A stretch of DNA of 64,000 bases from Actinomycetota bacterium (GCA_035765775.1 DASTWV010000057.1:27160-91159), one strand, 5' to 3'. Positions 8,112-63,804 are shown, counted from the first letter of the stretch. Notes: generated from the sequence alone by a model not told the origin. Numbers and translations are program-made.

Positions 8112-8121
8112 CGTGGCCGCC

Positions 8122-48845: not shown

Positions 48846-49148
48846 CTAGCCGCCGATCTCCACGGTCGGGAGACCCAAAGCGATCGCCCCGCCGTGCGCG
48901 GTGGTGTCGCCCATCCGGGCGGCGGGCTTGCCGTTGATCAGGACCGTGACCGAGCCCTTCACGATCGTGTCGGGCGGCCCCACGCAGGTGCACATCATGC
49001 CCATCGTGGCCGCCGGGACGCCCCCGATCAACACCGGGGGGCCTGCCGGGGGCCCGGTCACCGGCCCGCCGACGTGCGGTATGGGCGGCGTTCCGGGCGT
49101 GACCATCGGGCAGGTGTGCATGTCGCCGATGCGGGCCGCCGGGGGCAT
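48846..49148 (-). CDS. PAAR-domain spike-tip protein
   Basis: 100 aa from an internal ATG behind the AAGGAG RBS. Sequence MPPAARIGDMHTCPMVTPG...PVLIGGVPAATMGMMCTCVGPPDTIVKGSVTVLINGKPAARMGDTTAHGGAIALGLPTVEIGG carries three PAAR-like motifs (PAARIGD, PAATMG, PAARMGD). Confidence 0.85.
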   Translation of the reverse strand: MPPAARIGDMHTCPMVTPGTPPIPHVGGPVTGPPAGPPVLIGGVPAATMGMMCTCVGPPDTIVKGSVTVLINGKPAARMGDTTAHGGAIALGLPTVEIGG

Positions 49149-49155
49149 GGCTCTC

Positions 49156-51804
49156 CTACTCCTTGGTGAAGAACTCCAGCTCACTGATGGCCACGGAGGT
49201 GCCACCGCTGGACGACGGGTAGACCGACTCGATGGTGATCGTCACCCCCCGGATGCCATGGCCGTGCTCCAGGGTCAGGAGCTGGGCGTCGGGCTGGTTC
49301 TTGAGCGTCAGGGTGTCCGACTGCCCGTTGCTGTAGCTGATGAGCACCGACTTCGGCCGCGGCTCGGCGACAAAGGTGGCGCCAATGCCGCTGAACACGT
49401 TCACCCGGTCCAGGTTGACCGGTTGCTGGGACGTGGAGGAAAAGAGGATGAACATCGAGACCCCCACCCCGAGCTTGGGGCTCGCCTGCGCCTGCCACCA
49501 GGTGTTGGTGTGACCGTCGATGGCCTGCGCCGCCAGGTGCGTGGGCACTGAGGAGGTCGACGAGGCGTTCAACGGCGTCACCAGGTTGTAGTGCGGCGAC
49601 ACCTTCTTGCGGATGCTGGAGGTGACGCTCTTCACCTTGTTCTCGACTGTCTTGCGGTACGGCCCGGCGGCGGCCACGATCCCGGCGACCACCGCCAGGG
49701 CGATTATGATCTTGATCACCTTGCCCACTGCCGAGGGCTTGGGGGCTGTCCGGCTCCCGTGGCCCTGGGCCGGCCGTTCGCCGGCGGCGAGCACCGCCTT
49801 CTTCCGCCCGAAGATGCGCTTCCACCAGGAGACCTTGGGTGTCGGGGCCACGACCGCCGCCTCCAGCGAGGTGCCACAGCGCCGGCAGAACCTGCGGTTG
49901 GGCGTATTGCCCTCACCGCACTGGCCGCAGATGAGGTCGCCCGGAGCGTAGGTGCGGGCCGGTGGCGGCGCCTCCGCAGGGGCGGGCCGGGCTTTGGCGG
50001 CCGCGGGCTTCACCGCCTCGGGCTGGGACACCTGGGGCTTCACCGCCGCGGGGGCCTGGGGCGGCATCGGTCCCCCGTACGGCGAGGGCGACGCGGCGTA
50101 GGGAGGCGCCGGTGCGCCGGGGGCCGGGGCTGGCGTGTCGGCTCGTGACGCGGCCGCGGGGGCCTGCGTCGCCGGAGCCGGTTCCCAGAGGGAACGCTGC
50201 GGCGGCGGAGGGCCCGGTGGTGCGGGAGGAGGTGGAGCTCCCCACAGAGGAGGTCCCGCGGGCGCGGCAGGCGGCGCGGGCGGGCCTGCTGCCGGTGCCG
50301 GGGTGGGTCGGGGGCCGGCCGGCGATGCCCCGGGCGGTGGTGGTGGGGGCGCCTTGGCCACGAGTGCCGCTGCTCGGCGGGCAGCCTCCTGGGCCTTGGC
50401 CGCCTGCTCGGCGGCGAGGCGGGCCTCCTCCTGCGCCCGGCGGGCCTCCTCTTCCGCCTGGGCCTTGGCGGCGGCCTCCGCTTCCGCGCGTCGGGCCTGC
50501 GCCTCCGCTTCCCGGCGGGCGGCCTCATGAGCCTGGGCGGCAGCTGCAGCCCGAGCCTCCTCCTCGAGCCGGGCGGCCTGCTCAGCCTGGCGCGCCTGTT
50601 CCGCCTCGGCAGCCTCCTCGGCCGGCGTTGGGGGTGGCGTGCCGTCCGGTCCAGCCGCCAGGCCAGCCCCGGGCGCCGAGCCGGCGTCGCCGGGCGACGG
50701 GGGCGACCCAAACGACGTGGCGGGCGCAGGCGGCGAGAGAGGCGCAGCAGGCGATACGGCGGGCTCCGACGGCGCCGGCCCAGCAGGCGGGCGGGTCCCC
50801 AGGACGCTCTGCATCCGTGGACGACGTGCCCTGCCGGTTTCCGGCGCCGGGGCGCCCGTCGATGCCGGGGCGTCAGCCGCTGCGGTCGACAGAGATTCGG
50901 CTTCGGCGCCTACCGGTCCTTCCGGACCGGCGGGTGCAGGGGCGTCGTCCGCCAAGGACCGGCGCCCGGGGCGAGCCGGCCCCAACGGAGCGTCGCTCAG
51001 GCTGTAGCGGCCGGACGCGAGCGGTTCTGCCCATGGTTCCACCCGGGCCCGGGCAGGCTCTCCCGCCGGCCCAGGCGGCTCCGCACTCGGCCCAGGAGGC
51101 GCTGCTCCCACCGGTCCGGGTGGCCGTTCGGCGGTCTTCTCACCCCGCGGGCCCGGTCTCGGCCCACCGGTCCCGGCCGCCTCGGCCGGGGGCTCCGGTG
51201 CCACGTCCGGACCCGGTTTCGGTCCCGGCTTGGACGCTTCCTCCGAGCGGGCCGCAGCCGCAGCCGCCTCAGCAGCCGCCTGCATTTGGGCCTGGGCGGC
51301 GTCGGCAGCTTGGGTGGCGTCGGCAGCTTGGGCGGCCTGCCGTCTCGCAGCTTCCTCGGCCTCAGCGGCGGCGTGGCGCCGGGCGGCTTCCTCAGCCTCG
51401 GCCCGTTGGTGCTCCTGCTCGGCGGCCACCCGGGCGGCCTCGGCCGCAGCCCGCCGGGCCTGCTCCTCGGCGGCGGCACGGCGGGCGGCTTCCTCGGCGG
51501 CTCGGCGGGCGGCCTCCTCGGCCTCCGCTGCCCGGCGGCGGGCTTCCTCGGCAGCTCGCTGGGCGGCGAGGCGCTGGCGCTCCTCCTCCCGTTGCCGGAG
51601 CTCGGTGGCCAGGTCGGGCGGCGGGGGGGGCGGGGTCAGCGGAGCCGGCGCCGGGGTGGGTGAAGGCACCGGAGCGGCCTCCGGGGGGAACGCCGGGGCG
51701 GCGGGTGCCTCGCGCTCCCCGGTGAATTCCAGGAAGGAGCCGCAGGAACCGCAGAACTCGTCGCCGTCCTCGTTGCGGTTCCCGCACTGCTTACAGATGA
51801 TCAA
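49156..51804 (-). CDS. Double zinc-ribbon / coiled-coil / single-TM / discoidin (F5/8 type C)-like domain protein embedded in the CIS operon
   Basis: The likely TTG start overlaps the gpI stop, and a GAGGTGG RBS lies 7 nt upstream. The N-terminal zinc ribbon is IICKQCGNRNEDGDEFCGSCGSF. About 500 aa of Ala/Glu/Arg-rich coiled-coil (RRAAEAEEAARRAAEEAARR...) alternate with Pro-rich segments. A second zinc ribbon is LICGQCGEGNTPNRRFCRRCGTS. One TM helix (VIKIIIALAVVAGIVAAAG) follows. The C-terminal ~170 aa, AIDGHTNTWWQAQ....GGTSVAISELEFF, resembles the F5_F8_type_C/NPCBM carbohydrate-binding fold. The upstream ~115 codons of track ORF 49156..52149 are a non-coding extension. Confidence 0.7.
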   Translation of the reverse strand: MIICKQCGNRNEDGDEFCGSCGSFLEFTGEREAPAAPAFPPEAAPVPSPTPAPAPLTPPPPPPDLATELRQREEERQRLAAQRAAEEARRRAAEAEEAARRAAEEAARRAAAEEQARRAAAEAARVAAEQEHQRAEAEEAARRHAAAEAEEAARRQAAQAADATQAADAAQAQMQAAAEAAAAAARSEEASKPGPKPGPDVAPEPPAEAAGTGGPRPGPRGEKTAERPPGPVGAAPPGPSAEPPGPAGEPARARVEPWAEPLASGRYSLSDAPLGPARPGRRSLADDAPAPAGPEGPVGAEAESLSTAAADAPASTGAPAPETGRARRPRMQSVLGTRPPAGPAPSEPAVSPAAPLSPPAPATSFGSPPSPGDAGSAPGAGLAAGPDGTPPPTPAEEAAEAEQARQAEQAARLEEEARAAAAAQAHEAARREAEAQARRAEAEAAAKAQAEEEARRAQEEARLAAEQAAKAQEAARRAAALVAKAPPPPPPGASPAGPRPTPAPAAGPPAPPAAPAGPPLWGAPPPPAPPGPPPPQRSLWEPAPATQAPAAASRADTPAPAPGAPAPPYAASPSPYGGPMPPQAPAAVKPQVSQPEAVKPAAAKARPAPAEAPPPARTYAPGDLICGQCGEGNTPNRRFCRRCGTSLEAAVVAPTPKVSWWKRIFGRKKAVLAAGERPAQGHGSRTAPKPSAVGKVIKIIIALAVVAGIVAAAGPYRKTVENKVKSVTSSIRKKVSPHYNLVTPLNASSTSSVPTHLAAQAIDGHTNTWWQAQASPKLGVGVSMFILFSSTSQQPVNLDRVNVFSGIGATFVAEPRPKSVLISYSNGQSDTLTLKNQPDAQLLTLEHGHGIRGVTITIESVYPSSSGGTSVAISELEFFTKE

Positions 51805-52340
51805 CCGGTGACCACCTCGATCTGGTGGGGGATGTGGGCGGGCTTTCCCGAGGAAACTACCGCTTCGAGCCGTTGGCGATCCACAACTCCTGCATCGGCC
51901 ACCCGAACCCGCACCTTGAGGGACGGCTCGGCGGTGCCCGGGAGATCGCCGTTGGGCACCGGCGACCACGCGGCGGCCCCGCTCTCCTCCACCTCGACGT
52001 CGCCCCCGAAGACAAGGCGCACTAGCCCGACCAACCCCCGCACCGTCCCCCGCTGCGCGTAGAGCGCGGACGCCTCGCCCACCAGCGCCCGCCGCCGCTC
52101 CAGCGACCAGGTCTCGTCCAGCACCACCCCCACCCAGCCGGCCAACCATTCCAAAAAGTCCGGGGGAGCGACGGCGGGGCTCAGGTAGGCGTCGAGGTTG
52201 TCGAGGGCCAGGAACACCGGCGCCAGCACCTCATCCAGCCCGGCGGTGATGCGCTGGGTGAAGCTGTCCTCGTAGTAGATCGGCGGCAGCAGGAACCCCA
52301 GCGGCTGGGGGCTGGCCATACCCCGGACGGCGCCCCTCAT
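51801..52340 (-). CDS. Baseplate protein, P2 gpI-like (Afp12/Pvc12 position)
   Basis: LLPPIYYED...DAYLSPAVAPPDFLEWLAGWVGVVLDETWSLERRRALVGEASALYAQRGT matches the Tail_P2_I family signature (LLPP....LLPWLA....W....R.....HR.KGT). The ATG overlaps the gpJ stop (ATGA). Confidence 0.75.
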   Translation of the reverse strand: MRGAVRGMASPQPLGFLLPPIYYEDSFTQRITAGLDEVLAPVFLALDNLDAYLSPAVAPPDFLEWLAGWVGVVLDETWSLERRRALVGEASALYAQRGTVRGLVGLVRLVFGGDVEVEESGAAAWSPVPNGDLPGTAEPSLKVRVRVADAGVVDRQRLEAVVSSGKPAHIPHQIEVVTG

Positions 52341-54283
52341 GCCGGCTCGACCAGGACCTGGTGCCCGTAGGAGAACACCAGGGCATGGGGGTCGATCGCC
52401 AGGCGCTGCACGGCCTCGCCCCGCCGGCCGGTGATCGGATCCGCCGGGTAGAGGCGGGCCTCGTCCACCAGCTCGACACCCGGCAGGCGCTGCAGGACCG
52501 CGTAGACCTCACCCGCGTGGATGGGGCGCCCGAACGGCCAGCCGGTCCCGTCGGGGCCGCCGCTGATCGGGTGGAAGTACCCGTAGAGGGCTTCGACCGC
52601 CGCCGCCCGCAGGCGGTCCACCGAGGCCGACCGGCGGGCCCGCAGCCGGGCCACCACGGTGATCCCCTGGTAGACCGGGGGCTCCACCACCAGGCGGGAG
52701 CCGATCACCCGGCGCTCGTCGAGGGCCCCCGCGACCCGGGCGAGCGTCTCGTCCGAGGGGACCAGCTGCTCGAACTCCAGGCGCCCGGCCTCCCGCTCGC
52801 TGGCCGCCGGCACCACCAGCACCCGGACGGCCCCGGGATCGGCGCCATTGCCCGCAGGCGCACACCGGACCCGGGCGACCTCGGGCGCCGCCTCGAGGGA
52901 GATCTGCTCGTAGTCCTCGGCGGTCACCGCCCGGTCCCGGGTCCGCAGGGTGAGGGGGCCCCGCAGTTTCGCCGACTCCAGGTCCTCGCCGTCCACCCCG
53001 CCCGAAGCGGGGCGCCGGTTCACCACCGAGCCCACGAAGGGGATCGTGGTGCGCAGCACCGAGATGGCACCCCGAGCGACGTTGCCCCGCCGGCCGCCGC
53101 CGGTGCGGTAGGAGCGCACCCGCAGGACGGCGCCGTCGCCCGGGGCGGCCCCGTACCGGCGCAGGGACCCGTCGGGCTCCCGGACGGCGGGGCCGAAGGC
53201 GATCTCGCCGCTGGCGGCGTCCAGCTGGAAGTGGCGGTCGTGCGGGCCGCTGTGGGCGAAGCCGTCCACCGGAGCCCACTCCTCCCACCCCTCGCCCTCG
53301 CTCACCTCGAGGATCACGGGGGCCTCCCCCGGGACCACCGGGGCGTTGCGCAGCGGGTAGCGCTGGCCGGCGCCCCCGGTGGCGGTGGCCACCACCTCGC
53401 CCTCGATGATCTCGGCGTTCACCGCCACCGTCGTCCCGCCGATGGTGGACGCCGCCACCCGGCTGATGAACGGCGGGGCGCTGTAGACCGGCTGGCCCTC
53501 CTCGGCGTCGGTGACCCGGCAGCGCAGCCAGCCCGCCCGTCGGCCGGCGATCTGGGAGGCCTGGTGGGAGGCGGGGACGTGCAGCACCACCTCGCCGTCC
53601 TTGTTCAGGCCCCCGGTGGTGTCCCGCTCGAGCTCGCAGACTGCCCAGCCCCGGCCATCCCATGCCTCCCAGGCAATCGGGGGGTTCCGGGGGTCGACAC
53701 CGACGCCCTCGATCCGGCAGCCCAGCTCCAGGAGGACCGCACACGACGGCACCGGGTTGGACAGGCCGATCAGGAGGGCGTCGCCCGGCTTGGGGGGCGC
53801 ATCGAAGCACGGGAAGCCATCCCCGATCTCCAGCCGGTCGGTCTGGTCGCCGGCCTGTGGGCCGAGGGCCGTGGCGACGCGAGACCGGGAGCACGGAACA
53901 ATGGCGAGGTCCGAGAGCACCGTGAACGACACCGCCTCCTCGGTGGGCGTGCGCAGCGTCGATACCTCGGTCCCGGCGGGGACGTCGATGGTGACCTCCT
54001 GGGTGGCGGACAGCCAGAAGGTCACGTCCACCTTGGCGGCGGTGGGTGGGAACAGCCGGATCCCCATGAGGTCCAGGAACTTGATGTAGAGCCGGTCGGG
54101 CACCCGGTTCAGCCGGAACAGCAGCTGGTCGGTCATGAAGGCGAACGTCTCGATCAGCGTCACGCCCGGGTCGGAAACGTTGTGGTCGGTCCACTCCGGG
54201 CAGCGCTGCTGGACCAGGCGCTTGGCCTCGTCGACCAGGTCCTGGAACCGGCGATCATCCAGGTTCGGCGCCGGCAGCGTCAT
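52337..54283 (-). CDS. Baseplate J-like protein (gpJ / Afp11 homologue)
   Basis: 648 aa. The N-terminal LDDRRFQDLVDEAKRLV....WTDHNVSDPGVTLIETFAFMTDQLLFRLNRVP is the conserved Baseplate_J N-terminus. Confidence 0.85.
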   Translation of the reverse strand: MTLPAPNLDDRRFQDLVDEAKRLVQQRCPEWTDHNVSDPGVTLIETFAFMTDQLLFRLNRVPDRLYIKFLDLMGIRLFPPTAAKVDVTFWLSATQEVTIDVPAGTEVSTLRTPTEEAVSFTVLSDLAIVPCSRSRVATALGPQAGDQTDRLEIGDGFPCFDAPPKPGDALLIGLSNPVPSCAVLLELGCRIEGVGVDPRNPPIAWEAWDGRGWAVCELERDTTGGLNKDGEVVLHVPASHQASQIAGRRAGWLRCRVTDAEEGQPVYSAPPFISRVAASTIGGTTVAVNAEIIEGEVVATATGGAGQRYPLRNAPVVPGEAPVILEVSEGEGWEEWAPVDGFAHSGPHDRHFQLDAASGEIAFGPAVREPDGSLRRYGAAPGDGAVLRVRSYRTGGGRRGNVARGAISVLRTTIPFVGSVVNRRPASGGVDGEDLESAKLRGPLTLRTRDRAVTAEDYEQISLEAAPEVARVRCAPAGNGADPGAVRVLVVPAASEREAGRLEFEQLVPSDETLARVAGALDERRVIGSRLVVEPPVYQGITVVARLRARRSASVDRLRAAAVEALYGYFHPISGGPDGTGWPFGRPIHAGEVYAVLQRLPGVELVDEARLYPADPITGRRGEAVQRLAIDPHALVFSYGHQVLVEPA

Positions 54284-54702
54284 TCCCCGACCCCCGCTTC
54301 CGGCAGGGTCTCGCTCGGGATCACGTAGAAGGGGAACACCAGGTTGCGGGGGTCATTGGTGCCGCGGATCGAGTACTGCACGTCGATGTAGACCGTCGAG
54401 GCATCGGCCGGGTCGGTGGTCACCGCGATCCCTTCCACATCCACCCGGGGCTCCCAGCGCTCGATCGACCGGCGCACCTCGTAGGCGATCCGCCCGGCGG
54501 TGGACCCGGTGACGGCGGCGAAGACGAAGTCGTGGATGGCGCACCCGAACTCGGGGCGCATCGGCCGCTCGCCGTAGGCGGTCCCGATGATGAGCCGGAT
54601 GGCCTCCTCGACCTCCTGTTCGCGCCCGACGAGGGCGATGCCCCCGCTGGCGCTGGTGCGCACCGGGAAGGCCCAGCCCTTGCCGACGAAGTCCTCGGTC
54701 AC
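54280..54702 (-). CDS. gp25/GPW-like baseplate wedge protein (lysozyme-like fold)
   Basis: VTEDFVGKGWAFPVRTSASGGIALVGREQEVEEAIRLIIGTAYGERPMRPEFGCAIHDFVFAAV....IERWEPRV belongs to the GPW_gp25 family. The GTG start follows a GAGGGAG RBS, and the track ORF extends further upstream into noise. Confidence 0.85.
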   Translation of the reverse strand: MTEDFVGKGWAFPVRTSASGGIALVGREQEVEEAIRLIIGTAYGERPMRPEFGCAIHDFVFAAVTGSTAGRIAYEVRRSIERWEPRVDVEGIAVTTDPADASTVYIDVQYSIRGTNDPRNLVFPFYVIPSETLPEAGVGE

Positions 54703-54728
54703 GTGCGCTCCCTCATCGTTGGCCCACC

Positions 54729-56597
54729 TCAGTTGATCTTGACGATGGCGCCCTGGACCTGGACCATGGCGCCGCCTTTGAGCTCGGCAGTGGCGTTGGC
54801 GTTGATGCTGATCGTGGCGCCCTGCACCGTGACCTGGGCGGTTCCGTTCGCCTTCAGCTGCACCCCCTTGATCTCGACGTTGCCGCCGCCGCCGTCGATC
54901 GACACCCCGCTGTCGGCCTTGATGCTCACCTGGCGGCCCTTGAGGTCCAGGTTGCCCGCTGCGGTGATCTTGATGTCGCCCGGGGCCCCCTTGCACTCGA
55001 TCTCGATGGTCCCGTCGGCATTGATGGTCAGCTTCTGGTTGTTCTTCGACAGCTTCACGATGTACTTGCTGTCGCCGGTCTGCAGCAGGATCCCGTCGTC
55101 GGTCCCCTCCTTCTCGGTGAAGGAGAGGCGGTGGTGGGTGCGGCTGAAGAAGTCCCGGCGCTGGACCTTGCCCGAGGCATCGTCGATGGTCGGCACCGAG
55201 CCGGTCGGCGGCTTGTCGACGCCGTTGTAGAGCCCGGCCAGCACGTACGGCCGGCGGCTGTCGCCCTGCTCGAAGGCCACCAGCACCTCGTCGCCCACCT
55301 CGGGCACCAGCACGGCCCCGTACCCGTTGCCCGCCGAGATCTGGGCGACCCGCGCCCAGTCGCTTTCGTAGGTATCGTCCAGCCAGGGGAACTTCAGCTT
55401 GACCCGGCACTGGTTCTCCGGGTCCTTGGCATTGGTCACGATCGCCTGCACCACCCCGGGGATGGGTTTCCGGGACGCGGAACCGCTGCCCTTGCCCGCT
55501 GCCCCGCCGGAAGCGAGGCCCAGCAGCGTCGAGTTCTGCTTGCCGCTCACGGTGAAAAAGGTGGTGTAGCCGCCGTCGGGGTCATAGTGGTGGCGGGCGG
55601 AGGTCAGGCGGTACTTACCGTCGAACGGCTTGCCCACCTGCCCGAGGCTGACGGCCGCCCCCGCCTTCAGGTCGGTGTTGCCCAGGGCCACGCCGTCGAA
55701 GGTGGCGGAGGCGCTGCCGATGTCCTCGGCCCGGGCCGCGGCGGCGGCCTCGCACTCGGCCTGCGTGGCGAACGGGATGCTGGCGGCGAGGTGCGTCGGC
55801 GAGCCGAATTTGCCGCCCAGGTCCGCCGGGGTGACATCGAGATGGCTGGCGGAGCTCTTCGCCGGCGACGTCCCCACTATCTCCCGCTTCTGCTTGGGGT
55901 CCCAGCTCCGGACCTTGACCTCCGTGACCTGCTCGGCGGCGGAGACCGCGCAGCGGAAGCTCAGCAGGTTCTCCCCCAGGGTGAGCTGCAACGGGTTGGT
56001 GGAGGCAAGCGTGCCGGGGCCCGGAGCGCCCGACGCCGACTGCGGCTTGCGGAAGTCGAGCTTGCCCTTGGTGACCATCAGCTCGTAGCCCACCTCGGCC
56101 GACAGCCCACCGAGGAAGTCCCAGTCCGAGCAGTTGAACTGCGTGATCACGTCGTGCACGACCGATGTCGAGTCGACGGTCCCCAGCGACAGTCCATTGC
56201 GCTGGGCCACCTTGCCCGCCACGTCCGAGTAGCTCATGTTCTTGTAGGCCGCGGTGGTCCGCCCCCGGAACAAGCGGTGGGACGTGTCGAGTCCGCGGAC
56301 CACCGAGAGCGTCCCCAGCGGGTCGTGCTCGGCCTCCAGGGCCGTGATCTCGGCGTCCTCGATCAGGACCGTTCCCGAGGGGCTGGCATCCGACACCACC
56401 TTGATGGTCACCTTGCCGCCGATCTGGATCCCGGACGAGGCCGCAAACACCACCCGGCCAGGGTCCCGGAAGGTGAGCACGAAGGCGTCCGGGAGGTTGA
56501 GGCTGGTCTCCACGTAGGCGGACACCAGCAGCTCCTCGAGCGACGCGCTGAGCGGGGAGCCTGCGAGGCTCACCGACAGCGAGTGGGTGGGGTTCAT
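54729..56597 (-). CDS. VgrG/gpD-gp5-like central spike protein
   Basis: 622 aa from an internal ATG overlapping the upstream stop (ATGA). An N-terminal Phage_GPD-like region and a middle OB/gp5-like region (GVVQAIVTNAKDPENQCRVKLKFPWLDDTYESDWARVAQISAGNGYGAVLVPEVGDEVLVAFEQGDSRRPYVLAGLYNG) are present. The C-terminus is a beta-helix of repeats (KLTINADGTIEIECKG...DIKITAAGNLDLKGRQVSIKADSGVSIDGGGGNVEIKG...). Confidence 0.85.
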   Translation of the reverse strand: MNPTHSLSVSLAGSPLSASLEELLVSAYVETSLNLPDAFVLTFRDPGRVVFAASSGIQIGGKVTIKVVSDASPSGTVLIEDAEITALEAEHDPLGTLSVVRGLDTSHRLFRGRTTAAYKNMSYSDVAGKVAQRNGLSLGTVDSTSVVHDVITQFNCSDWDFLGGLSAEVGYELMVTKGKLDFRKPQSASGAPGPGTLASTNPLQLTLGENLLSFRCAVSAAEQVTEVKVRSWDPKQKREIVGTSPAKSSASHLDVTPADLGGKFGSPTHLAASIPFATQAECEAAAAARAEDIGSASATFDGVALGNTDLKAGAAVSLGQVGKPFDGKYRLTSARHHYDPDGGYTTFFTVSGKQNSTLLGLASGGAAGKGSGSASRKPIPGVVQAIVTNAKDPENQCRVKLKFPWLDDTYESDWARVAQISAGNGYGAVLVPEVGDEVLVAFEQGDSRRPYVLAGLYNGVDKPPTGSVPTIDDASGKVQRRDFFSRTHHRLSFTEKEGTDDGILLQTGDSKYIVKLSKNNQKLTINADGTIEIECKGAPGDIKITAAGNLDLKGRQVSIKADSGVSIDGGGGNVEIKGVQLKANGTAQVTVQGATISINANATAELKGGAMVQVQGAIVKIN

Positions 56598-57310
56598 GCC
56601 GGCCCCGCTGCCGAGGAGATCGAGGGGATGAGCAGGTGGCGACCGGCGGCCACCCGGAGCGGGTCGTCGATCCCATTGGCCTCGGCCAGCGCCCGCCACA
56701 GCGTCGGGTCGCCGTACTCCTGGTAGGCGATGCCAGCCAGCGTGTCCCCCTCGAGGAACTGGCGGGTCGCCATCGCCGCCAGAGCCCCCGAGGTGGGGTT
56801 CTGCTTGCCCTGCTTGGTCGGCAGCTCGTGCAGGGTGAGGGAGCACACCGCCCGGATCGGCTTGCCGTTGGGGTGGAACAGCGTGTAGCGGGCGCTGACC
56901 TGCTGGATGTAGCCCACGAAGTACACCTTGTCCCAGCCGAAGCGCACCGCAGGGGGCACCGGCCGGTCCTTGCCCTGCGAGGCGGACGTCGGCGTGCAGG
57001 CATCGATGAGCTTCTGCACGTCCTTGGAGACGTCCCCGTCGGACTCCTCCGAGGCGTCGAGGAACATCTCCAGGCTCATGTGCGACGGGTTGGGCCCCAT
57101 GTACTGCGCCGGCCCGGCGTTGCTGCTGCCGGCGACGTTGGTGGTCTGCCAGTTGGCGCTCTTGGCGATGGAGAACTCCTGGGGGTTGAACTGGAAGTGG
57201 ATGGTGCCCGTGGTCGAGCCGGCGCTCACCTCGCCGGTCGAGGAGCTCTTGATCTCGGCCAGCTCCAGGTAGGCCATGGTGAAGCCCGAGGGCGGGGGTC
57301 CTATGGGCAT
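56594..57310 (-). CDS. LysM-domain baseplate hub / tube-initiator-like protein (Afp7/Pvc7 position)
   Basis: The C-terminal LysM domain reads GDTLAGIAYQEYGDPTLWRALAEANGIDDPLRVAAGRHLLIPS. The N-terminal ~180 aa is beta-rich and tube-like. Position between the tube and spike genes. Confidence 0.7.
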   Translation of the reverse strand: MPIGPPPSGFTMAYLELAEIKSSSTGEVSAGSTTGTIHFQFNPQEFSIAKSANWQTTNVAGSSNAGPAQYMGPNPSHMSLEMFLDASEESDGDVSKDVQKLIDACTPTSASQGKDRPVPPAVRFGWDKVYFVGYIQQVSARYTLFHPNGKPIRAVCSLTLHELPTKQGKQNPTSGALAAMATRQFLEGDTLAGIAYQEYGDPTLWRALAEANGIDDPLRVAAGRHLLIPSISSAAGPA

Positions 57311-57313
57311 GGC

Positions 57314-57754
57314 CTACGCCGCCTCGAGGGTGAAGCCGTTGTGGGCGATCTCGAGCGATTCCTCCGCCACCTTGGGCGACTCCGCCGAGAACGAGGGCCC
57401 GCTCCACTTCACCGGGATGACCCCGGTCAGGTGCCAGGTCACCAGGCGGTTGCCCTGCGGGGTGAGCGCCACGATCTCGGCCGAGGTGCGCTTGACCCCC
57501 TTCGCCAGCCCGGCCAGCCAGGAGGCCACCTTGATGCTCTCCGGGCCGATCGGGCGGGTGAAGCGCACGTTGGAGAAGGTGATGCGCACCGGCAGCTTCC
57601 AGACGTAGCCGTTGTTGCCCCCCTCGACCCGCTCCTCGGTGACGACGTCCATCGACAGCCCGTCGCAGGTGGTGAACTCGCCCAGGTCCACGCCGTCGAT
57701 GCGCACGTGGAAGTAGAGGGCGACTGCTGGGTCGGTGTCGGTGGCGCCGGGCAC
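57314..57754 (-). CDS. Tail tube protein (T4 gp19 / Afp1-5 family)
   Basis: 146 aa. ALYFHVRIDGVDLGEFTTCDGLSMDVVTEE....VWKLPVRITFSNVRFTRP is characteristic of the Phage_T4_gp19 tube family. Confidence 0.85.
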   Translation of the reverse strand: MPGATDTDPAVALYFHVRIDGVDLGEFTTCDGLSMDVVTEERVEGGNNGYVWKLPVRITFSNVRFTRPIGPESIKVASWLAGLAKGVKRTSAEIVALTPQGNRLVTWHLTGVIPVKWSGPSFSAESPKVAEESLEIAHNGFTLEAA

Positions 57755-57770: not shown

Positions 57771-60700
57771 TCAGGTGAGGTCGGTCAGGAGTCCCGCCCG
57801 CTCCCGGTCGTGCCAGAGCTCCCGGCGCAGGTAGGGCCGGAGGCGGGGGTAGAGGCGGCGGGCGAGCTCATCGATGTCGTCGGGCAGGGCTTTGTTCGGC
57901 TCCACCGGGGCCGTCTCGGGGCCGGCGGTGGCCGCAGATGCCGCCGGGCTGGTTGCCGGTGAACGTGGGGCCGGGGAGGTTCTGGGCGGGCTGGCCATGG
58001 GGGACGGGGTGCCGGTGGCGGTTTCTGTCGGCGCTCGCTGCACCATGCGGAACACCTGCTCCGCCGTGGGGCGGGTGGGAGCAGGAGATAGCCGCAGGAT
58101 GGGGGCGGGAAGCGGGGAGCGGGACACCAGGGCATCCATGGAAGCCCTACCCCCCGGCGCCGACCGGGGCTGGGACGACGGGGCGGCCGGCGTTGCCGGG
58201 GCGGCCGGCGTTGCCGGGGCGGCCGGGCCGTGGCCGGGGAGAGATCGTTGCAGGGCGCGGACCCCGAGGAGCGGAGTCGGTGCCTCGGGCAGCCTGGGGG
58301 CCGCCCACGGGGTGGCGGTCGGCATCGGGAGGGCCGGCAGGTCGGCGCCGGTGGGGTCTGGGTGCGCGGGGCCCGGAGGCGGCGAATTGGGCAGAACCCC
58401 GGTGGCGTCGGCCTCACCTCGCCCCCGGAGGGCGGTGGCGATCGGGCGCTCGGGGAGCGGGGCGGTATGGCCGGCCGGGACCCGGTGCGCGGGGCCCGGA
58501 GGCGAACTGGACAACAAAAGCCGTGAGTTCTGAGGGTAATGGTGCGCGGAAACCTCGGGGCTGGGCGCGACGCCGGCGCTGGGCAGCGCCGTGGCGATCG
58601 GGCGCTCGGGCAGCGGGGCGATGTGCTCGACCGGGGATGGGGACCGCTCTGGGAGCGCCGGAAGGTTGACCAAGTGGGATTCGGTGGGTGAATGGGGCAA
58701 CAAGACCGGTGGATGCTGCGCGTGACGCTGCGCGGAAACCTCAGGACGGGCCGGCGTTGCGGCAGCGCCTTCGTCCGTTGGGCGGGGCAAGGCGGTGGCG
58801 ATGGGACGCTCCGCCAGCGATGAGATCTCCCAGCTGCGTGGCGCCGAAGGTTCGGCGAATGTGCCCGGCAGCCGAGAAGCACCCTCCTTGCTCAGTTCGA
58901 GCCCAGTCCCGGGCAGCTCGGCCGGCACGGGGGGGCTTTGGTGCTGGGAGTCTGCGGGCAGCGCGGTGGCGATCGGGCGCTCCGTGAGCGGCGCAACCCC
59001 GGTGGCCGGGACGGCCTGCGCCGGGTCCGTCTGCGCCGCGTCGGTCTGCGCCGGGAGGGCGGCCGCCGGCCCCCCGGGGACAACCGGGAGCGTCGGCTCC
59101 GGGATTCTGTGTACACCGGGGTGCTCCATATGGCGCTGCGTGTACACAGAATCCGGGGTTGGCGACAATCGCTGGGCGGTTCGCTCGGGAGCTGCGCCCC
59201 GGGCGGTCAGCGGCGGGGCAGGCGGCGACGCGGACGGGACACTCTCGGGCAGCCGGGCGGGGACGACCGCCCCGCGCATCGCCCCGGCGGGGTTTCCGGC
59301 GCCCTCGCTGAGCGGCGGAGCAGCCTCGGGCAACGAGGTCGAGATCGGTCGGTCGGCCAGCGGCGGTGCGGCGGGTGAGCTGACCGATGGATCGGGGCCT
59401 TCCGTGATCCGCTGCGGTGCCGGTTCCGGGGTCTGCGACGAGAGAGGTGCCGGCGGCCACGATGTAATGGGCACATCCTCCGGGATCCGGACGGCGGGTG
59501 CCTCGCCACGCTCCGCTGGAACGGTGCCGGCGCTCCCATCCGGCGGCAGGGGCGGTGCCACCTCGGGCAGCGCGGTCTCGATCGGTCGTTCGGCCAGGGG
59601 GGGTGTGACCAGCGCTCTGGTGGCCGCCGAAGAAGGAGCGTCGACGAGCTGCTGCACCGGCGCCTCCGGCTTGGACGCGAGGTCCGCCGGAGGAGCACCG
59701 GCCTTGCCCGGCAACGGTGCCCCCAGCCCGAGGCCCAGCTGGCGGATGGTCCGTCGCTTCACGGCCACCGGAGCGGTCCGGGCCACAGCCGCTGCTCCGG
59801 GTGCCACGACGGGCGAAGAGGGCGATGCCGGACCCGGTGCGGCCGGGGAGCGCGGCGGGGCTATAGGCGGACCCGAAGGATCCGAGGGCCCCGGCAACGG
59901 CGAGGCAATCGGCGGAGCCGCCGAGGCAGGGCTGCCCGCGGCGGCAGGGCCAGACGGAACGGCGGGGGGAGCCGAGCGGACCACCGGGGCCGCCGGGAGA
60001 CGCTGGATCGGTGGCCCGGACGGGACGGGAGTGACCGGTCCGCCGTTCCGGGATGCGGCCGGCCGGGGGGCCGCGGCCGGAGGCACCGGCCGGGGCGGAA
60101 GCTGGTCGGGTGGCGACACCAGGTCCGCCGGCCCCTCGGCGGCGGGGGGCAACGTCTCGGCTCCTAGCGTCGGCGCCTCCATCGGCCGTCCTTGGGGTGC
60201 CATGGAGGGAACGGGCGGTTCGGCGACCGGTTCGACGGGCAGCCCAGCGACTGTCTGCGCCACCGGCCCCGCAGGGTCTGCAGAGGGAACACCGACCGGG
60301 GCAACGCGGGGCAAAGGGATGGTCGCGGCAGGGGCTGCCACCGACCGCGAGACGGACGGCATCTCCACCGCCGGGAGCTCCCGGGGCACCAGGCCTTTCG
60401 GGGCTGCCTGGAGGAGCGGCCGGATCGGCTTGGAAACTGGGACCGCGGGACTGGCCCCCCTCGGGGCCGCGCCGGCGGAGTCCCGCCCGCTGAGCTGGCC
60501 CGGATCCGGAACCGGGTCGATCTCCCGGGCCGGCGCGCCCGCCGACTGCTGCTGCACCTGAGGCTCCGCCCCGGTCTCGACTAGCGACCCCGGCACCACC
60601 GCATCCGATCCCAGCACCACAACCGGCCCCGGCACCGGCACCGGCGCCCCAACTGCCGGGGGAACGGGGGCAGCGGGCTCGCTCCACCGGATCGCCGGGG

Positions 60701-61148
60701 GGTCGGCCGCCCGGAACACGGTCCGCCAGGTCCGCTCCCGCCCAGGCCCTCCGGCCCGCCGCCGGGGAGCACGGGGAGCACGTTGGGCACGGGGAGCACG
60801 GGGGGCAAGGGGCGGGGAAGCTACCTGACGCTGCACGGGTGCCGGGGCCACCACAGAGGTCAGCCCGCTCACCAGGCCTGCCGGCGCTTCCTCCGACACC
60901 CCGTGCGCCAGCGGCGCCAGGAAGGGGTAGGGCGCCGTCTGGGCGGCAAGGCCGTCCTTGAAACTCTGGACCCCCACCACGGTGGGCATCGCACCGAGGA
61001 CCGGCTCGAACCCGCGGGCGGCCCGCCACTCCCCGGCCTCGGGGCGCGCAGAGGCGGGCGGCGTCACCGGCGGGGCGACGGGAACCGACTCAGGCCGCGC
61101 ACCCTGACCGGCACCGCGGCCAGCCCGGGCACCGAAACCGCCCCGCAC
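57771..61148 (-). CDS. Pro/Ala-rich tandem-repeat protein in tape-measure position (putative length determinant)
   Basis: 1125 aa with high GC3 throughout. There are at least 7 divergent ~55-60-aa repeats sharing the core P-L-(A/T)-(E/D)-R-P-I-(A/S/E)-T-(A/S)-L-P. The core is conserved at amino-acid level despite nucleotide divergence. The distinct charged C-terminus is DIDELARRLYPRLRPYLRRELWHDRERAGLLTDLT. The gene is tightly packed between the two tube genes (7-nt and 16-nt gaps). Confidence 0.6.
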   Translation of the reverse strand: MRGGFGARAGRGAGQGARPESVPVAPPVTPPASARPEAGEWRAARGFEPVLGAMPTVVGVQSFKDGLAAQTAPYPFLAPLAHGVSEEAPAGLVSGLTSVVAPAPVQRQVASPPLAPRAPRAQRAPRAPRRRAGGPGRERTWRTVFRAADPPAIRWSEPAAPVPPAVGAPVPVPGPVVVLGSDAVVPGSLVETGAEPQVQQQSAGAPAREIDPVPDPGQLSGRDSAGAAPRGASPAVPVSKPIRPLLQAAPKGLVPRELPAVEMPSVSRSVAAPAATIPLPRVAPVGVPSADPAGPVAQTVAGLPVEPVAEPPVPSMAPQGRPMEAPTLGAETLPPAAEGPADLVSPPDQLPPRPVPPAAAPRPAASRNGGPVTPVPSGPPIQRLPAAPVVRSAPPAVPSGPAAAGSPASAAPPIASPLPGPSDPSGPPIAPPRSPAAPGPASPSSPVVAPGAAAVARTAPVAVKRRTIRQLGLGLGAPLPGKAGAPPADLASKPEAPVQQLVDAPSSAATRALVTPPLAERPIETALPEVAPPLPPDGSAGTVPAERGEAPAVRIPEDVPITSWPPAPLSSQTPEPAPQRITEGPDPSVSSPAAPPLADRPISTSLPEAAPPLSEGAGNPAGAMRGAVVPARLPESVPSASPPAPPLTARGAAPERTAQRLSPTPDSVYTQRHMEHPGVHRIPEPTLPVVPGGPAAALPAQTDAAQTDPAQAVPATGVAPLTERPIATALPADSQHQSPPVPAELPGTGLELSKEGASRLPGTFAEPSAPRSWEISSLAERPIATALPRPTDEGAAATPARPEVSAQRHAQHPPVLLPHSPTESHLVNLPALPERSPSPVEHIAPLPERPIATALPSAGVAPSPEVSAHHYPQNSRLLLSSSPPGPAHRVPAGHTAPLPERPIATALRGRGEADATGVLPNSPPPGPAHPDPTGADLPALPMPTATPWAAPRLPEAPTPLLGVRALQRSLPGHGPAAPATPAAPATPAAPSSQPRSAPGGRASMDALVSRSPLPAPILRLSPAPTRPTAEQVFRMVQRAPTETATGTPSPMASPPRTSPAPRSPATSPAASAATAGPETAPVEPNKALPDDIDELARRLYPRLRPYLRRELWHDRERAGLLTDLT
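58430..59620. repeat. Tandem array of degenerate ~165-190-bp repeats (coding; inside the Pro-rich ORF)
   Basis: Recurring core GGCGGTGGCGATCGGGCGCTC(G/C)G(G/C)GAGCGG and variants at ~58433, 58596, 58790, 58959, 59338 and 59571 on the plus strand. The reverse complement encodes ...ERPIATA.... Confidence 0.6.
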
Positions 61149-61154: not shown

Positions 61155-61313
61155 TCACCTACCCCGGTCCTGTTCCTCGTTCAGCCGTCCGATCTCCTTC
61201 ACGAAGCGCTGCCGGACGGGATGCTCGAGGTCCAGGATGTCGTCGAGGCTCCAGTGGAAGTGGTAGGCGACGTACGCGACCTCCCGGTAGAGCCGGTCTG
61301 GCGCGTACGTCAC
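61155..61313 (-). CDS. Small ORF (52 aa) in -1 frame overlapping the preceding gene's stop
   Basis: The GTG start overlaps the TGA of ORF 61310..61783 (tcGTGAcg). It encodes VTYAPDRLYREVAYVAYHFHWSLDDILDLEHPVRQRFVKEIGRLNEEQDRGR, which is protein-like and has high GC3, and it ends 7 nt before the Pro-rich gene. It may be an independent small protein or a -1 frameshift extension. Confidence 0.3.
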   Translation of the reverse strand: MTYAPDRLYREVAYVAYHFHWSLDDILDLEHPVRQRFVKEIGRLNEEQDRGR

Positions 61314-61783
61314 GATTCCCCCAGGCGACCACCGGCCACATCGACCGAGAAGTTGTGCTCGCAGGCCGGGCAGGTCACCGCGGCCCGGGTGTGGCCCTCT
61401 TCGTTGATCCGCCGGTAGAGGTCCTGGAGGAACGCCACGTCGGAGGCGAACATGTTCTCCAGCACCCCACCGTGGATGTCCTCCACCGTCCCCAGCCGGG
61501 TGATCACCCGGGCCAGCAGCACGATGGTCAGGTAGGCAGGGTTCTCCTTGACCCGGTCGTCGTGCAGCGGCAAGAGCTCGTCCCGGGCGGTCGCCAGGCG
61601 CATGGCGCCGTTGCGGTGCACCGTGCCCGACCGGTCGACATAGCCCCGGGGGAGCACGAAATCGAACTCGGTCTGGAGCTTGCGCGGCTCCTCCGCGCGC
61701 CCCGCCCCGCGCCCGGAACCCTCGGAGGGCGCGTCGTCCTCGCTCCTGCCCGCCTCCAGGACGGGCGCCAGTCCCCGGCGCAT
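61310..61783 (-). CDS. Hypothetical CIS-associated protein (possible tape-measure/tail assembly chaperone)
   Basis: <=157 aa. Protein-like segments include EFDFVLPRGYVDRSGTVHRNGAMRLATARDELLPLHDDRVKENPAYLTIVLLARVITRLGTVEDIHGGVLENMFASDVAFLQDLYRRINEEGH, plus CxxC (TCPACEH). The start overlaps the tube gene stop by 1 nt, although the true start may lie further downstream. Confidence 0.45.
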   Translation of the reverse strand: MRRGLAPVLEAGRSEDDAPSEGSGRGAGRAEEPRKLQTEFDFVLPRGYVDRSGTVHRNGAMRLATARDELLPLHDDRVKENPAYLTIVLLARVITRLGTVEDIHGGVLENMFASDVAFLQDLYRRINEEGHTRAAVTCPACEHNFSVDVAGGRLGES

Positions 61784-62226
61784 CAGGCGGGTGCGCAGCC
61801 TTCGTGGGCGATCGTGAGCTTCTCGGTGAGGATGCTGGTGTCACCGGCTTTCAACGTCCCCACCTCCAGCACCTTGGGCCAGCAGTTGGTCAGCTTGTAG
61901 CGCATGATCTCGGCACCCTGGTAGTCGTAGACAATCACCGAGCCGCCCTTCCGGGAGACGGGCATGTTGCCCTGGTGAGCGTCCTTGACCCAGTCCTGGA
62001 AGGTCTTGTCCGACGTCAGGCCCCGGGTGATGCTGATCTCGCCGATCTTCGGCCGGCCGGGGAGCTGCTTGTTGACGTACTTGCCGTCTTTGGTGTTGGC
62101 CTTGAGCTCGATGACGTCCTGCTCCATCTTCACGCCCGACAGCTCCTGGATCTGCTTGATCTGGATGCCGTCGAATTCGAACCCGAACGACCAGCCAACA
62201 CTCGCATCCTCATCGGGCAGGGCCAT
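61783..62226 (-). CDS. Tail tube protein (T4 gp19 / Afp1-family), second paralogue
   Basis: 147 aa. WSFGFEFDGIQIKQIQELSGVKMEQDVIELK....YKLTNCWPKVLEVGTLKAGDTSILTEKLTIAHEG fits the Phage_T4_gp19 family. Confidence 0.85.
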   Translation of the reverse strand: MALPDEDASVGWSFGFEFDGIQIKQIQELSGVKMEQDVIELKANTKDGKYVNKQLPGRPKIGEISITRGLTSDKTFQDWVKDAHQGNMPVSRKGGSVIVYDYQGAEIMRYKLTNCWPKVLEVGTLKAGDTSILTEKLTIAHEGCAPA

Positions 62227-62274: not shown

Positions 62275-63804
62275 TTATTCGGTCAGCGATGCTCCGCCGG
62301 AGAACTGCGAGAGCCGGAAGACCACGAACTCAGCGGGCTTAACCGGGGCAACGCCGATCTCGCAGATCACCATCCCGGCGTCGATCGACTCCGCCGGGTT
62401 GGTCTCGTCGTCGCACTTCACGTAGTACGCCTGGTCGGGGTTCAGACCGAACAGGGCGCCCTTGCGCCACTCGTTCACCAGGAAGGTGGCGATGGTGCGG
62501 CGCATCTTGGCCCACAGCGCATAGTCGTTCGGCTCGAAAACGGCCCACTGGGTGCCGCCCAGGATGGACTCCTCCAGGTAGTTGAACAGCCGCCGGATGT
62601 TGAGGTACCGCCACGCCGGGTCGCTGGACAGGGTGCGGGCGCCCCACACCCGCGTGCCCCGGCCGGGGAAGTTGCGGATGCAGTTGATGCCGTGGGGGTT
62701 CAGGAGGTCGTGCTCGCTCTTGGTGATGTTCAACTCCAGGGTGATCGCCCCCCGGACCACCTCGTTGGCAGGTGCCTTGTGCACGCCCCGGGTGTCGTCG
62801 TTGCGCCCCCAGATGCCCGCCATGTGCCCGCTGGGCGGGACGAAGATGTTCTGCCCCGAGGCGGGGTCGAAGACCTTGATCCACGGCCAGTACAGGGCGG
62901 CGTACTTGGAGTCGTAGCCCGCCTTGTCCACCCGCCACTCCCGGATCTGCTGGGCGTTCAGCCCGGGCGGGGAGTCGAGGATGGCCACCCGGTCGCCCAT
63001 CAACTCGCAGTGGGCGATCATCGCCAGCTGGACCGCCTTCAGCCCCTCCTGGTCGATCATGCCCTTCTGGTAGGCGGCCATGAGGTCGGGCACGCACACC
63101 ATCGTGATCGGGTCGATGGCCTCCAGGCCCCCGAAGCCGGTCCGGTCCGACGCGTCGCCTACGTAGTCGTCCGGCGCCAGGCGGGCCGGGGCGGGCGGGC
63201 TGCCCCCGCCGGTCAGGCTCACGGTGGACTTGACGGGCTTGTCGAGCGCGGCGCCCGGCGTGGCCTCCTCGATGCGGATCACTTTGGAGACGGCGTTCAC
63301 CATGGCCACCACGTTCTGGCGACCCTTCTTGGTGCTGGCCTTGTCGAACTCCTCGACCTGTTGGCCGTCGCGGCGGATGATGAGCTTGAACTGGTCCTCG
63401 GTGGCGCCCTCCCCGGGGTCGGCCACCTCGACCGAGATGTTGTTGCCCGCCGCCCCCGGCTCCAGCGCCCGGATGACGTAGCCGCCCAGCCGGGCGTCGG
63501 CCCCGCTGGCCAACTCGCCCCGCGGCCCGGAGCCGTTGCCGTCGCCGCCCACCCGGACGACGTAGCACGCTCCCCCGCCGTTGAGGAAGTACCCGTACAC
63601 CGCGTGGGCGAGGTAGGTGCCCTCGACGAACTCGCCGAAGGTGTTCGTGAACTGGCCCCAGTTGGTGCAGAGCGTCGGCTCGTTCAAGGGGCCCTGGGCA
63701 GCAAGGCCGACGAACGCGGCCACCGCCGTCCCCACGCCTTCGATCGGCCGGGATCCGGAGTCCACCTCCTCGACATAGACGCCGGGGGACAGGTACTGGG
63801 GCAT
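62275..63804 (-). CDS. Contractile tail sheath protein
   Basis: 509 aa. The N-terminal MPQYLSPGVYVEEVDSG is the canonical sheath start. A C-terminal conserved sheath domain follows (WPWIKVFDP...GINCIRNFPGRGTRVWGARTL). A strong GAGGAGGAGG RBS lies upstream. Confidence 0.9.
   Translation of the reverse strand: MPQYLSPGVYVEEVDSGSRPIEGVGTAVAAFVGLAAQGPLNEPTLCTNWGQFTNTFGEFVEGTYLAHAVYGYFLNGGGACYVVRVGGDGNGSGPRGELASGADARLGGYVIRALEPGAAGNNISVEVADPGEGATEDQFKLIIRRDGQQVEEFDKASTKKGRQNVVAMVNAVSKVIRIEEATPGAALDKPVKSTVSLTGGGSPPAPARLAPDDYVGDASDRTGFGGLEAIDPITMVCVPDLMAAYQKGMIDQEGLKAVQLAMIAHCELMGDRVAILDSPPGLNAQQIREWRVDKAGYDSKYAALYWPWIKVFDPASGQNIFVPPSGHMAGIWGRNDDTRGVHKAPANEVVRGAITLELNITKSEHDLLNPHGINCIRNFPGRGTRVWGARTLSSDPAWRYLNIRRLFNYLEESILGGTQWAVFEPNDYALWAKMRRTIATFLVNEWRKGALFGLNPDQAYYVKCDDETNPAESIDAGMVICEIGVAPVKPAEFVVFRLSQFSGGASLTE

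Follow-up and report, generated by a model that had tools for sequence, protein, structure and literature searches.

The window, a 64,000-nucleotide stretch of Actinomycetota DNA (GCA_035765775.1 DASTWV010000057.1:27160-91159), contains a contractile injection system (CIS) locus whose gene order parallels that of the phage P2 tail operon. Within this locus lies a long open reading frame (ORF) for a proline-rich protein, which we favour, with reasonable but limited confidence, as the tape-measure equivalent of actinobacterial CIS, albeit an atypical and non-helical one. The genes follow the order sheath, tube, tail assembly chaperone (TAC), DUF6760 ORF, long ORF, tube initiator, GpU-like hub with LysM, and spike, and the long ORF is the largest gene of the module. 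The F operon of phage P2 runs FI (sheath), FII (tube), E, E', T (tail length determinator), U, and D; the window block is collinear with FI-FII-E-E'-T-U-D, and the long ORF stands at the position of gpT, between the chaperone genes and the tube-initiator and hub genes, as expected for a tape measure. The same gene order was found in 9 related actinomycete loci, with L009 showing the downstream side only. A preliminary description had assigned the ORF to the tape-measure slot, and this assignment holds and is strengthened by the preceding chaperone pair and the collinearity with P2. The ORF does lie between two tube genes as described, but it abuts neither the first of them nor the hub, since two chaperone-like ORFs stand between it and the first tube gene, and the second tube gene comes before the hub.

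Both the ORF listing and the translation give a frame that is uninterrupted from 61148 to 57771, with a GTG start, and that encodes 1125 amino acids (aa). The preliminary description gave exactly this extent and left the strand, which is minus, unstated. The frame starts 6 nucleotides (nt) past the stop of the DUF6760 ORF and ends 16 nt ahead of the next gene. Its product is 21.2% proline and 17.9% alanine and is near charge-neutral, with 93 lysine and arginine versus 87 aspartate and glutamate residues. The maximum Kyte-Doolittle hydropathy over 19 residues is 1.46, meaning that no hydrophobic segment is present, and the longest proline-free run is 20 aa, so that the centre cannot form long helices and would measure as an extended disordered chain. 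AlphaFold2 (AF2) predicted coil except at aa 60-81 (with short helices at aa 60-70 and 78-81), 1029-1036, and 1087-1124, but with a mean predicted local distance difference test (pLDDT) score of 33 from a single sequence this is weak evidence; the helix at aa 1087-1124 is the only stretch with a pLDDT above 50. The short proline-free runs and the coil prediction together support the earlier view of a proline-rich, non-helical protein.

A composition rich in proline, alanine, serine, and threonine is like that of actinobacterial cell-surface linkers, and with a LysM hub encoded close by the product could be an envelope or cell-wall protein of the extensin-like type, or a fibre or anchor component, that is merely located in the operon. 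We consider this very improbable, as the protein has no signal peptide, transmembrane helix, sortase domain, or LysM domain, its N-terminus is basic and glycine-rich and not hydrophobic, these systems are cytoplasmic in Streptomyces, and a 997-aa protein with zinc ribbons and a glycan-binding domain, encoded elsewhere in the locus, makes a better candidate for the fibre or adaptor. From the hydropathy and the N-terminal sequence we rejected an envelope protein, whether transmembrane or secreted.

The preliminary description reported at least 7 copies of a repeat of about 55-60 aa with an ERPI core. The repeated core is real: the DNA pattern for (E/D)RPIxTxL has 6 matches, all within the ORF on the coding strand, against an expectation of 0.00 from 100 dinucleotide-preserving shuffles. 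The motif [AP][PS]Lx[ED]RPIxTxL[PR] occurs in 6 clear copies, starting at aa 516, 595, 719, 776, 844, and 896, and 1 further copy, PALPERSPSPVEH, starting at aa 830, is degenerate, so that the count of seven was too generous. The two DNA examples quoted at that time were both found and correspond to copies 7 and 2. The repeat length was not borne out, since the spacing of the clear copies is irregular (79, 124, 57, 68, and 52 aa) and Tandem Repeats Finder detected no long-period array at the ERPIATALP region, for which reason we dropped the description as a regular tandem repeat. The flanks of the repeats are patchily alike, with units 1 and 2 similar across about 50 aa, PEVSA(Q/H) common to units 4 and 6, and PPGPAH common to units 6 and 7. 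The stretch from aa 516 to 959 is a degenerate repeat region and not a series of seven regular units of 55-60 aa. The ERPIATALP repeat is missing from the orthologs, which carry other repeats, and is therefore a lineage-specific repeat and no conserved functional unit.

Long spurious ORFs are frequent in this 75% GC region, one of 762 aa lying in another frame of the same strand and one of 588 aa on the opposite strand, and the length of the ORF thus proves little alone, leaving comparative evidence to decide. Its GC content by codon position is 0.80 at the first position (GC1) and 0.68 at the second (GC2), both unusually high, and 0.81 at the third (GC3). The neighbouring structural genes have GC3 values of 0.90-0.98, and the GC3 of the ORF, earlier called very high, was overstated. 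A chance frame in GC-rich DNA, or the shadow of genes on the opposite strand, could show just such a GC3, under that of its neighbours and hardly above GC1, could stand beside other spurious ORFs, and could be left uncalled by gene callers, as this ORF is. That the ORF is no gene is nevertheless scarcely credible, because a single open frame joins both conserved ends of the protein in 6 of 6 intact orthologs and in about 30 full-length database members, out of a family with 3070 representatives. In a six-frame tblastn comparison, the ORF frame scored 310 bits against the ORF frames of its orthologs (6 high-scoring pairs, 5 orthologs), versus 41-43 bits for antisense frames, which matched the closest ortholog only.

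The repeats carry the same signal. Across the 13-codon core of the six good copies, 85 codon pairs are identical, 59 differ synonymously, and 51 differ non-synonymously, and the residues L, R, P, I, T, and L stay the same in every copy although their codons change. The spacings of the copies, 156, 204, 171, 372, and 237 nt, are each divisible by 3. Three orthologs have long arrays in which periods could be compared, namely L001 (225, 21, 15, and 12 nt), L007 (138, 60, 42, 39, and 30 nt), and L010 (141, 93, 87, and 42 nt), and the sole period that is not a multiple of 3 is a 40-nt row in L010 that has 20% indels and overlaps the 42-nt array. The synonymous changes in the core, the frame-specific conservation of the ends, and the ortholog repeat periods agree with the earlier argument for selection on the protein. 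On these comparative grounds, the gene is real and is constrained at the protein level.

Related loci were found by using the downstream tube protein as an anchor, and further loci were reached through members of the family (Table 1). The slot is filled in every related locus inspected, all of them from Actinomycetota. The orthologs resemble one another at both ends, and their centres vary and contain in-frame repeats peculiar to each lineage. The N-terminal region of the window protein reads W..LP.(V/I)QR...F..GLA....P.FLxPLxHxxS..AP.GLV.GL, and the intact orthologs share a region of about 65 aa with the consensus W..LP.(V/I)QR...F..(G)LA....P.FLxPLxHxV.P..P.GLV.GL; identity with P0001 is 49% across 80 aa by BLASTP, and L001 and L004 match by tblastn. 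At the extreme C-terminus the orthologs have in common a 40-aa consensus, DLDxLARRLYxxxxxxLxxELxxDRERAGxLxD. Short motifs are scattered between the ends of the intact orthologs, including (R)RxGLGAP(L/I), a hydrophobic-QR motif, and APLLG; the incomplete orthologs show those conserved features that are located in the part recovered. The motif type (R)RxGLGAP(L/I/M) was seen in translations of L001-L004, L007, L010, and P0001. The hydrophobic-QR motif, typically P(V/I)QR, is found in the window protein at aa 106, 382, 967, and 1037, among other positions, and 0-20 times per protein, mostly 7-16 times, across about 30 long family members; nearly every member of the family has 7-20 of them. Speculatively, these family-wide hydrophobic-QR and LGAPL motifs may be contact sites for a chaperone or the tube.

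The centre of L001 contains two copies of a 75-aa unit with 92% DNA identity. Streptomyces sp. PA5.6 has about 8 copies of a 31-aa PVQR unit (L010 668-1416) and about 2 tandem copies of a 47-aa unit, whose motif RPRRTAIGAPxPPVQRS occurs three times. The lengths of the intact proteins vary from 521 to 1165 aa by such lineage-specific in-frame duplications, as would be expected of an evolving ruler. The charged C-terminus noted in the preliminary description is present but is not unique to this protein, being the hallmark of the whole family, and its wide conservation would fit a docking element.

Table 1. Features of the long ORF and its CIS locus in the window, where all CIS genes listed are on the minus strand, and orthologs of the ORF in related loci
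Feature	Position	Strand	Evidence or remarks
Candidate atypical tape measure ORF	57771..61148 (including stop codon)	minus	ORF list and translation; full ORF 1125 aa, annotated as 122 aa in the window's own metagenome-assembled genome (MAG), HEU5003796.1
Conserved N-terminal region, aa 40-108	60825..61031	minus	Alignments, BLASTP, tblastn
Mid-protein motif RQLGLGLGAPLP, aa 469-480	59709..59744	minus	Type (R)RxGLGAP(L/I/M), also found in orthologs
Degenerate repeat region, aa 516-959	58272..59603	minus	Repeat-family search, pattern search, codon comparison
Six motif copies	59565-59603, 59328-59366, 58956-58994, 58785-58823, 58581-58619, 58425-58463	minus	
Seventh, degenerate motif copy	58623-58661	minus	
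Extreme C-terminal motif DDIDELARRLYPRLRPYLRRELWHDRERAGLLTDLT, aa 1090-1125	57774..57881	minus	Alignments, profile search, AF2
Sheath	62275..63804	minus	Pfam Phage_sheath_1, Phage_sheath_1C
Tube protein 1, gp19 family	61783..62226	minus	Pfam Phage_T4_gp19 E=1.2e-30
157-aa TAC-like protein	61310..61783	minus	PHROG 508 E=1.1e-4
CTGGGGGAA run before chaperone stop, candidate -1 frameshift site	61316..61324	minus	
52-aa DUF6760 ORF	61155..61313	minus	Pfam DUF6760 E=1.6e-13
Second gp19-family tube protein (tube initiator, Cis5/Afp5-like)	57314..57754	minus	Phage_T4_gp19 E=6.1e-29
Hub, CIS_tube/GpU-like with LysM	56594..57310	minus	CIS_tube E=5.1e-26, Phage_P2_GpU E=1.5e-5, LysM E=1.5e-4
Spike (VgrG/gp5-like), start codon approximate	~54729..56597	minus	Pfam Phage_base_V E=1.5e-27
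gp25	54280-54720	minus	
Baseplate_J	52337-54283	minus	
Tail_P2_I	51801-52340	minus	
Zn-ribbon/glycan-binding 997-aa protein	49156-52149	minus	
PAAR	48846-49205	minus	
L001 ortholog			1057 aa, intact
L002 ortholog			At least 586 aa, incomplete (contig end or assembly gap)
L003 ortholog			720 aa, intact
L004 ortholog			521 aa, intact
L007 ortholog, Streptacidiphilus sp. (CP048289)	4767-8264 of L007		Full ORF 1165 aa, intact; annotated as 87 aa plus two antisense ORFs
L008 ortholog	5848-8291		Three reading frames: 367-aa N-terminal part, 550-aa middle, 96-aa C-terminal part
L009 ortholog	1-185		C-terminal stub only, contig end
L010 ortholog, Streptomyces sp. PA5.6	1-3033 of L010		Full ORF at least 1010 aa, ended by contig end; annotated as 260 aa plus wrong-frame and antisense ORFs
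L012 ortholog, Rhodococcus koreensis	~3917-6294 of L012		Full ORF at least 633 aa, interrupted by assembly gap; annotated as 97 aa after a 2.1-kb unannotated gap
L013 ortholog, Kribbella	~3616-6123 of L013		Full ORF about 835 aa, intact; annotated as 40 aa
L014 ortholog, Actinophytocola	3745-6192 of L014		Full ORF 815 aa, intact; annotated as 63 aa

Two chaperone-like ORFs precede the long ORF. The upstream 157-aa protein is recognized by a TAC-family profile, PHROG 508 "tail assembly chaperone", which 7 of 7 of its orthologs match (best E 1.7e-8), and it corresponds to P2 gpE and, in its position, to Sco4251; its AF2 model has a pLDDT of 52 (single-sequence). The DUF6760 ORF lies in the -1 frame relative to the chaperone, with a GTGA overlap. 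It weakly resembles the Pfam family Phage_P2_GpE at E=0.13 and, by hhalign, P2 E+E' at E=9e-4 and a probability of 22%; an FHW-centred motif is common to it and P2 E+E'. Ahead of the chaperone stop, the DNA CTGGGGGAAT is kept in six loci; the run CTGGGGGAA is identical in the window, L001, L003, L007, and L008, and in L004 it reads TCGGGGGAA. The G5 run of this candidate slip site is not a canonical X XXY YYZ heptamer, and DUF6760 has a GTG start in most loci. In L008 the DUF6760 frame is without a start codon at the overlap, having GAG in place of GTG. This arrangement suggests that the chaperone and DUF6760 may form a programmed -1 frameshift fusion of the P2 E/E+E' type, in which DUF6760 may be the equivalent of gpE'.

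The long ORF belongs to a large family. A profile of the C-terminal motif was searched exhaustively with HMMER against 1.84 billion cluster representatives. Of the proteins matched, 3070 have E<=1e-3 and 762 have E<=1e-10, and among the 150 members listed almost every one carries the motif at its C-terminal end. About 30 long members, 613-1032 aa in length and 11-24% proline, have both conserved ends. Searches with the terminal motifs worked where a homology search with the whole protein, swamped by low-complexity candidates, returned 1 match only; a word-indexed search with the terminal motif gave short proteins only. No Pfam domain was detected in any family member tested, and there was no NCBIfam, PHROG, or PDB match; the PDB chains, searched with the protein and with profiles of its two ends, yielded chance matches only (MOP23A, MpAFP, and CNNM). 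The C-terminal motif had no match in the phage genomes or plasmids searched.

The full-length gene is usually missed by genome annotation. Many database entries are C-terminal stubs of 32-260 aa that start at an internal methionine or valine, and in 6 of 6 annotated genomes checked the long ORF was uncalled and a C-terminal stub of 40-260 aa was called instead, the remainder of the gene being without annotation or overlain by antisense or wrong-frame ORFs. The atypical GC pattern by codon position is a plausible reason for the gene-calling failure, and together with low-complexity sequence and systematic annotation failure it would explain why the candidate has been overlooked. Draft assemblies also break or have gaps inside this gene, as in L009 (1-185), L010 (at position 1), and L012 (a run of N), and the repeat-rich gene appears to be hard to assemble, adding to its under-representation in databases. 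In L008, a 4.1-Mb MAG contig, the gene is split, either by an assembly indel error in low-complexity sequence or as a pseudogene. We regard the existence of the gene, the family to which it belongs, the slot it occupies, and the state of its annotation as firmly established.

This bears on a stated gap in the literature on Streptomyces CIS, where particles are uniform in length and a tape-measure gene is reported to be absent. In Streptomyces coelicolor, CIS particles measured 230 nm and 268 nm in two studies (PMC10066040, PMC12237407), and Casu et al. described the non-contractile particles as homogeneous at about 230 nm. The absence of a tape-measure gene from Streptomyces CIS or from lineage II extracellular contractile injection systems (eCIS) has been stated repeatedly (PMC10066040, PMC12237407, PMC6899500), with Chen et al. 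2019 noting that homologs of afp14 are generally missing in lineage II eCIS (PMC6899500). Our searches of the CIS literature found no description of a proline-rich protein in this slot; the "SCO4249" of PMC13033682 is a typographical reference to PhoP and is irrelevant. Annotation limited to stubs probably underlies the published claims of absence.

Several observations make it probable that this protein is encoded in the Streptomyces model systems as well, and that SCO4249/4250 are spurious antisense calls. Supplementary Table 1 of Casu 2023 assigns Sco4248 as Cis5 (tube initiator) and Sco4252 as Cis1, leaves Sco4251 without assignment, and skips Sco4249/4250, which are located in this slot. 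Between sco4248 and sco4249 there is, according to Vladimirov et al., a "divergent promoter region", which implies that sco4249 is annotated antisense to the operon. The 81-aa S. venezuelae protein DEJ49_28200 bears the family C-terminal motif, and in a close Streptomyces relative a frame open for at least 1010 codons, with an identical C-terminus, stands directly before the tube initiator.

If the protein is a tape measure, it would reside in the tube lumen, dock at the hub, bind chaperones, and control length, and we propose the following mechanism. The conserved C-terminal helical motif would first dock in the complex of hub, spike, and tube initiator. The disordered, proline- and alanine-rich chain would then be held extended by the TAC together with the form of it that a -1 frameshift probably joins to the gpE'-like DUF6760, while tube subunits polymerise around it. 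Growth would end, and the cap would bind, on reaching the conserved N-terminal region. Length would evolve by in-frame duplication or loss of central segments, the six ERPIATALP units being the version of this lineage. The broader proposal, that the family is the "missing" tape measure of Streptomyces-type CIS (lineage II / IId and related actinobacterial systems), a disordered proline- and alanine-rich ruler with docking ends, extended by chaperones, tuned in length by repeats, and missed by gene finders, seems to us evenly balanced.

The size of the protein can be set against what is known of eCIS. Particle length scales with the length of the tape-measure protein (TMP) at 0.2156 nm per residue across eCIS systems, and in AlgoCIS at 0.229 nm per residue, where engineered duplications and deletions shift length as predicted (preprint 10.64898/2026.05.27.728243). 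On this scaling the 1125-aa protein would correspond to 243-258 nm and the 1165-aa Streptacidiphilus ortholog to 251-267 nm, lengths that are compatible with the S. coelicolor range of 230-268 nm, as a cross-species coincidence and not a test.

Several observations weigh against a tape measure. The length comparison just given mixes species. Characterised TMPs, those of eCIS included, are described with an alpha-helical centre (preprint 10.64898/2026.05.27.728243), and the window protein is 21% proline, its centre being predicted to be coil instead of a helix or coiled coil. No similarity to a known TMP was found in Pfam, NCBIfam, PHROGs, or PDB chains, whether with the full protein, its termini, or 10 family members, and tblastn of 50,697 phage genomes found no relative. 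The GC3 of the ORF is also below that of the structural genes around it. The protein is therefore not assignable to any known TMP family: it has the position of a TMP and lacks both the homology and the helical centre. Finally, it is not reported in the mass spectrometry of S. coelicolor particles, and the cryo-EM model was built from nine proteins without it.

That last point would be met by a scaffold for assembly only, one that acts with the chaperones at tube initiation and is then degraded or released, leaving mature particles without it; disordered proline-rich chains are protease-sensitive. Such a role is improbable in our estimation. Absence from the mass spectrometry could reflect the missing annotation alone, as the ORF is probably absent from the databases searched, and symmetrised maps cannot show disordered chains. 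Conservation of the extreme C-terminus and of an N-terminal region also fits a ruler with two docking ends.

A somewhat better-placed alternative to a ruler, though still an unlikely one, is a passenger in the lumen or baseplate, that is, a disordered cargo, plug, or tether docked by its C-terminus and expelled on firing, with particle length set by other means. Streptomyces CIS carry the tape-measure-related effectors Tme and Sle1 (PMC11126660, PMC13277306), eCIS cargo typically has disordered N-terminal regions, and a protein without TMP homology or a helical core, with a fast-evolving centre and a 2-fold range of lengths, would suit an effector or linker. Against this, the window protein lacks enzymatic and toxin domains, DUF4157, and transmembrane segments (hydropathy maximum 1.46). 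Its gene is inside the structural operon right after the chaperone, in contrast to Sle1/Sle2, which are outside the operon in the opposite orientation. There is no other candidate for a ruler in the locus, and the size agrees with the eCIS scaling per residue. A ruler function is in its entirety an inference, and a tape measure remains the reading that we prefer.

The 997-aa protein has two zinc-ribbon regions, long stretches rich in alanine, glutamate, and arginine or in proline, and a C-terminal glycan-binding domain of the NADase_discoid type. Its gene is placed after Tail_P2_I, where related loci have DZR + F5_F8_type_C proteins, and it is probably the fibre or adaptor of the system. The PAAR gene is at the far end of the locus after this fibre-like gene; in L008, L012, and L014 it is beside the spike and gp25 genes. 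The last CIS gene appears to be PAAR, near 48.8 kb. Next to the locus, in divergent orientation, is a gene for a 996-aa regulator (AAA, Trans_reg_C, BTAD; SARP-type) at 45825-48815 on the plus strand, and in the Kribbella locus L013 BTAD regulators also adjoin the CIS genes. Past the regulator are housekeeping genes for a Sir2-family deacetylase and a zinc-type alcohol dehydrogenase/quinone oxidoreductase, at 41963-42757 (plus) and 43551-44570 (minus).

With this protein, a concrete and widespread candidate, represented by 3070 clusters, is now named in the canonical slot. If it is indeed a tape measure, a phage-tail-like tube could be measured by a non-helical chain, which would break with the paradigm of the alpha-helical tape measure. 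Particle length would then be tunable by the gain and loss of repeats, providing a handle for engineering both particle length and cargo capacity. Even if the protein is not a ruler, thousands of actinobacterial genomes contain a mis-annotated gene in a structural operon, and a systematic annotation failure is exposed for a family that has so far been unnamed.

The closest comparison is with the TMPs of contractile tails and eCIS. As in P2 gpT, T4 gp29, and Afp14/Pvc14/Alg14 ("Cis14"), the gene lies between the chaperone gene or genes and those for the tube initiator, hub, and spike. Like the window ORF, TMP genes are the largest of their module and encode conserved termini around a centre that varies in length, at about 0.22 nm per residue. 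In contrast to these proteins, the window protein is without sequence homology to them, its centre is rich in proline and alanine, predicted to be disordered, and without transmembrane or coiled-coil segments, and its family was not found in the sequenced phages searched. The chaperone pair has its counterpart in gpE/gpE+E' of P2 and gpG/gpGT of lambda, where two overlapping ORFs, the second in the -1 frame, likewise precede the tape-measure slot. The FHW-centred motif of P2 gpE' is also present in the DUF6760 protein of the window, the similarity being weak (hhalign probability 22%). The DUF6760-type ORF differs from these phage examples in usually having a GTG of its own, and its product may thus be made separately.

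Among actinobacterial CIS proteins, Tme (S. davawensis BN159_7576) and Sle1 (S. lividans SLIV_17115) resemble the window protein in being large and partly disordered, and they are believed to be located in the tube lumen in contact with the tube initiator or spike (PMC11126660, PMC13277306). The gene for Tme is just upstream of the baseplate genes, as is the window ORF. Both effectors contain coiled coils and transmembrane helices as well as a functional domain at the C-terminus, which in Tme is a nuclease, and DUF4157 is found either within the protein or as a partner. The window family has none of these; the window protein itself has no Pfam domains, a hydropathy maximum of 1.46, and predicted helices only near its termini. 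The Sle1 gene is upstream of the sheath gene and points the opposite way, and particles remain normal when it is deleted, whereas the window ORF occupies the canonical slot.

The principle proposed here has its analogy, and only an analogy, in the rulers YscP and FliK of type III secretion and flagella, which serve an unrelated machine and have no sequence relationship to the window family. Both are secreted, largely unfolded molecular rulers with conserved terminal domains that measure about 0.19 nm per residue. Changes in a proline-rich or disordered centre, whether insertions, deletions, or repeats, adjust the length.

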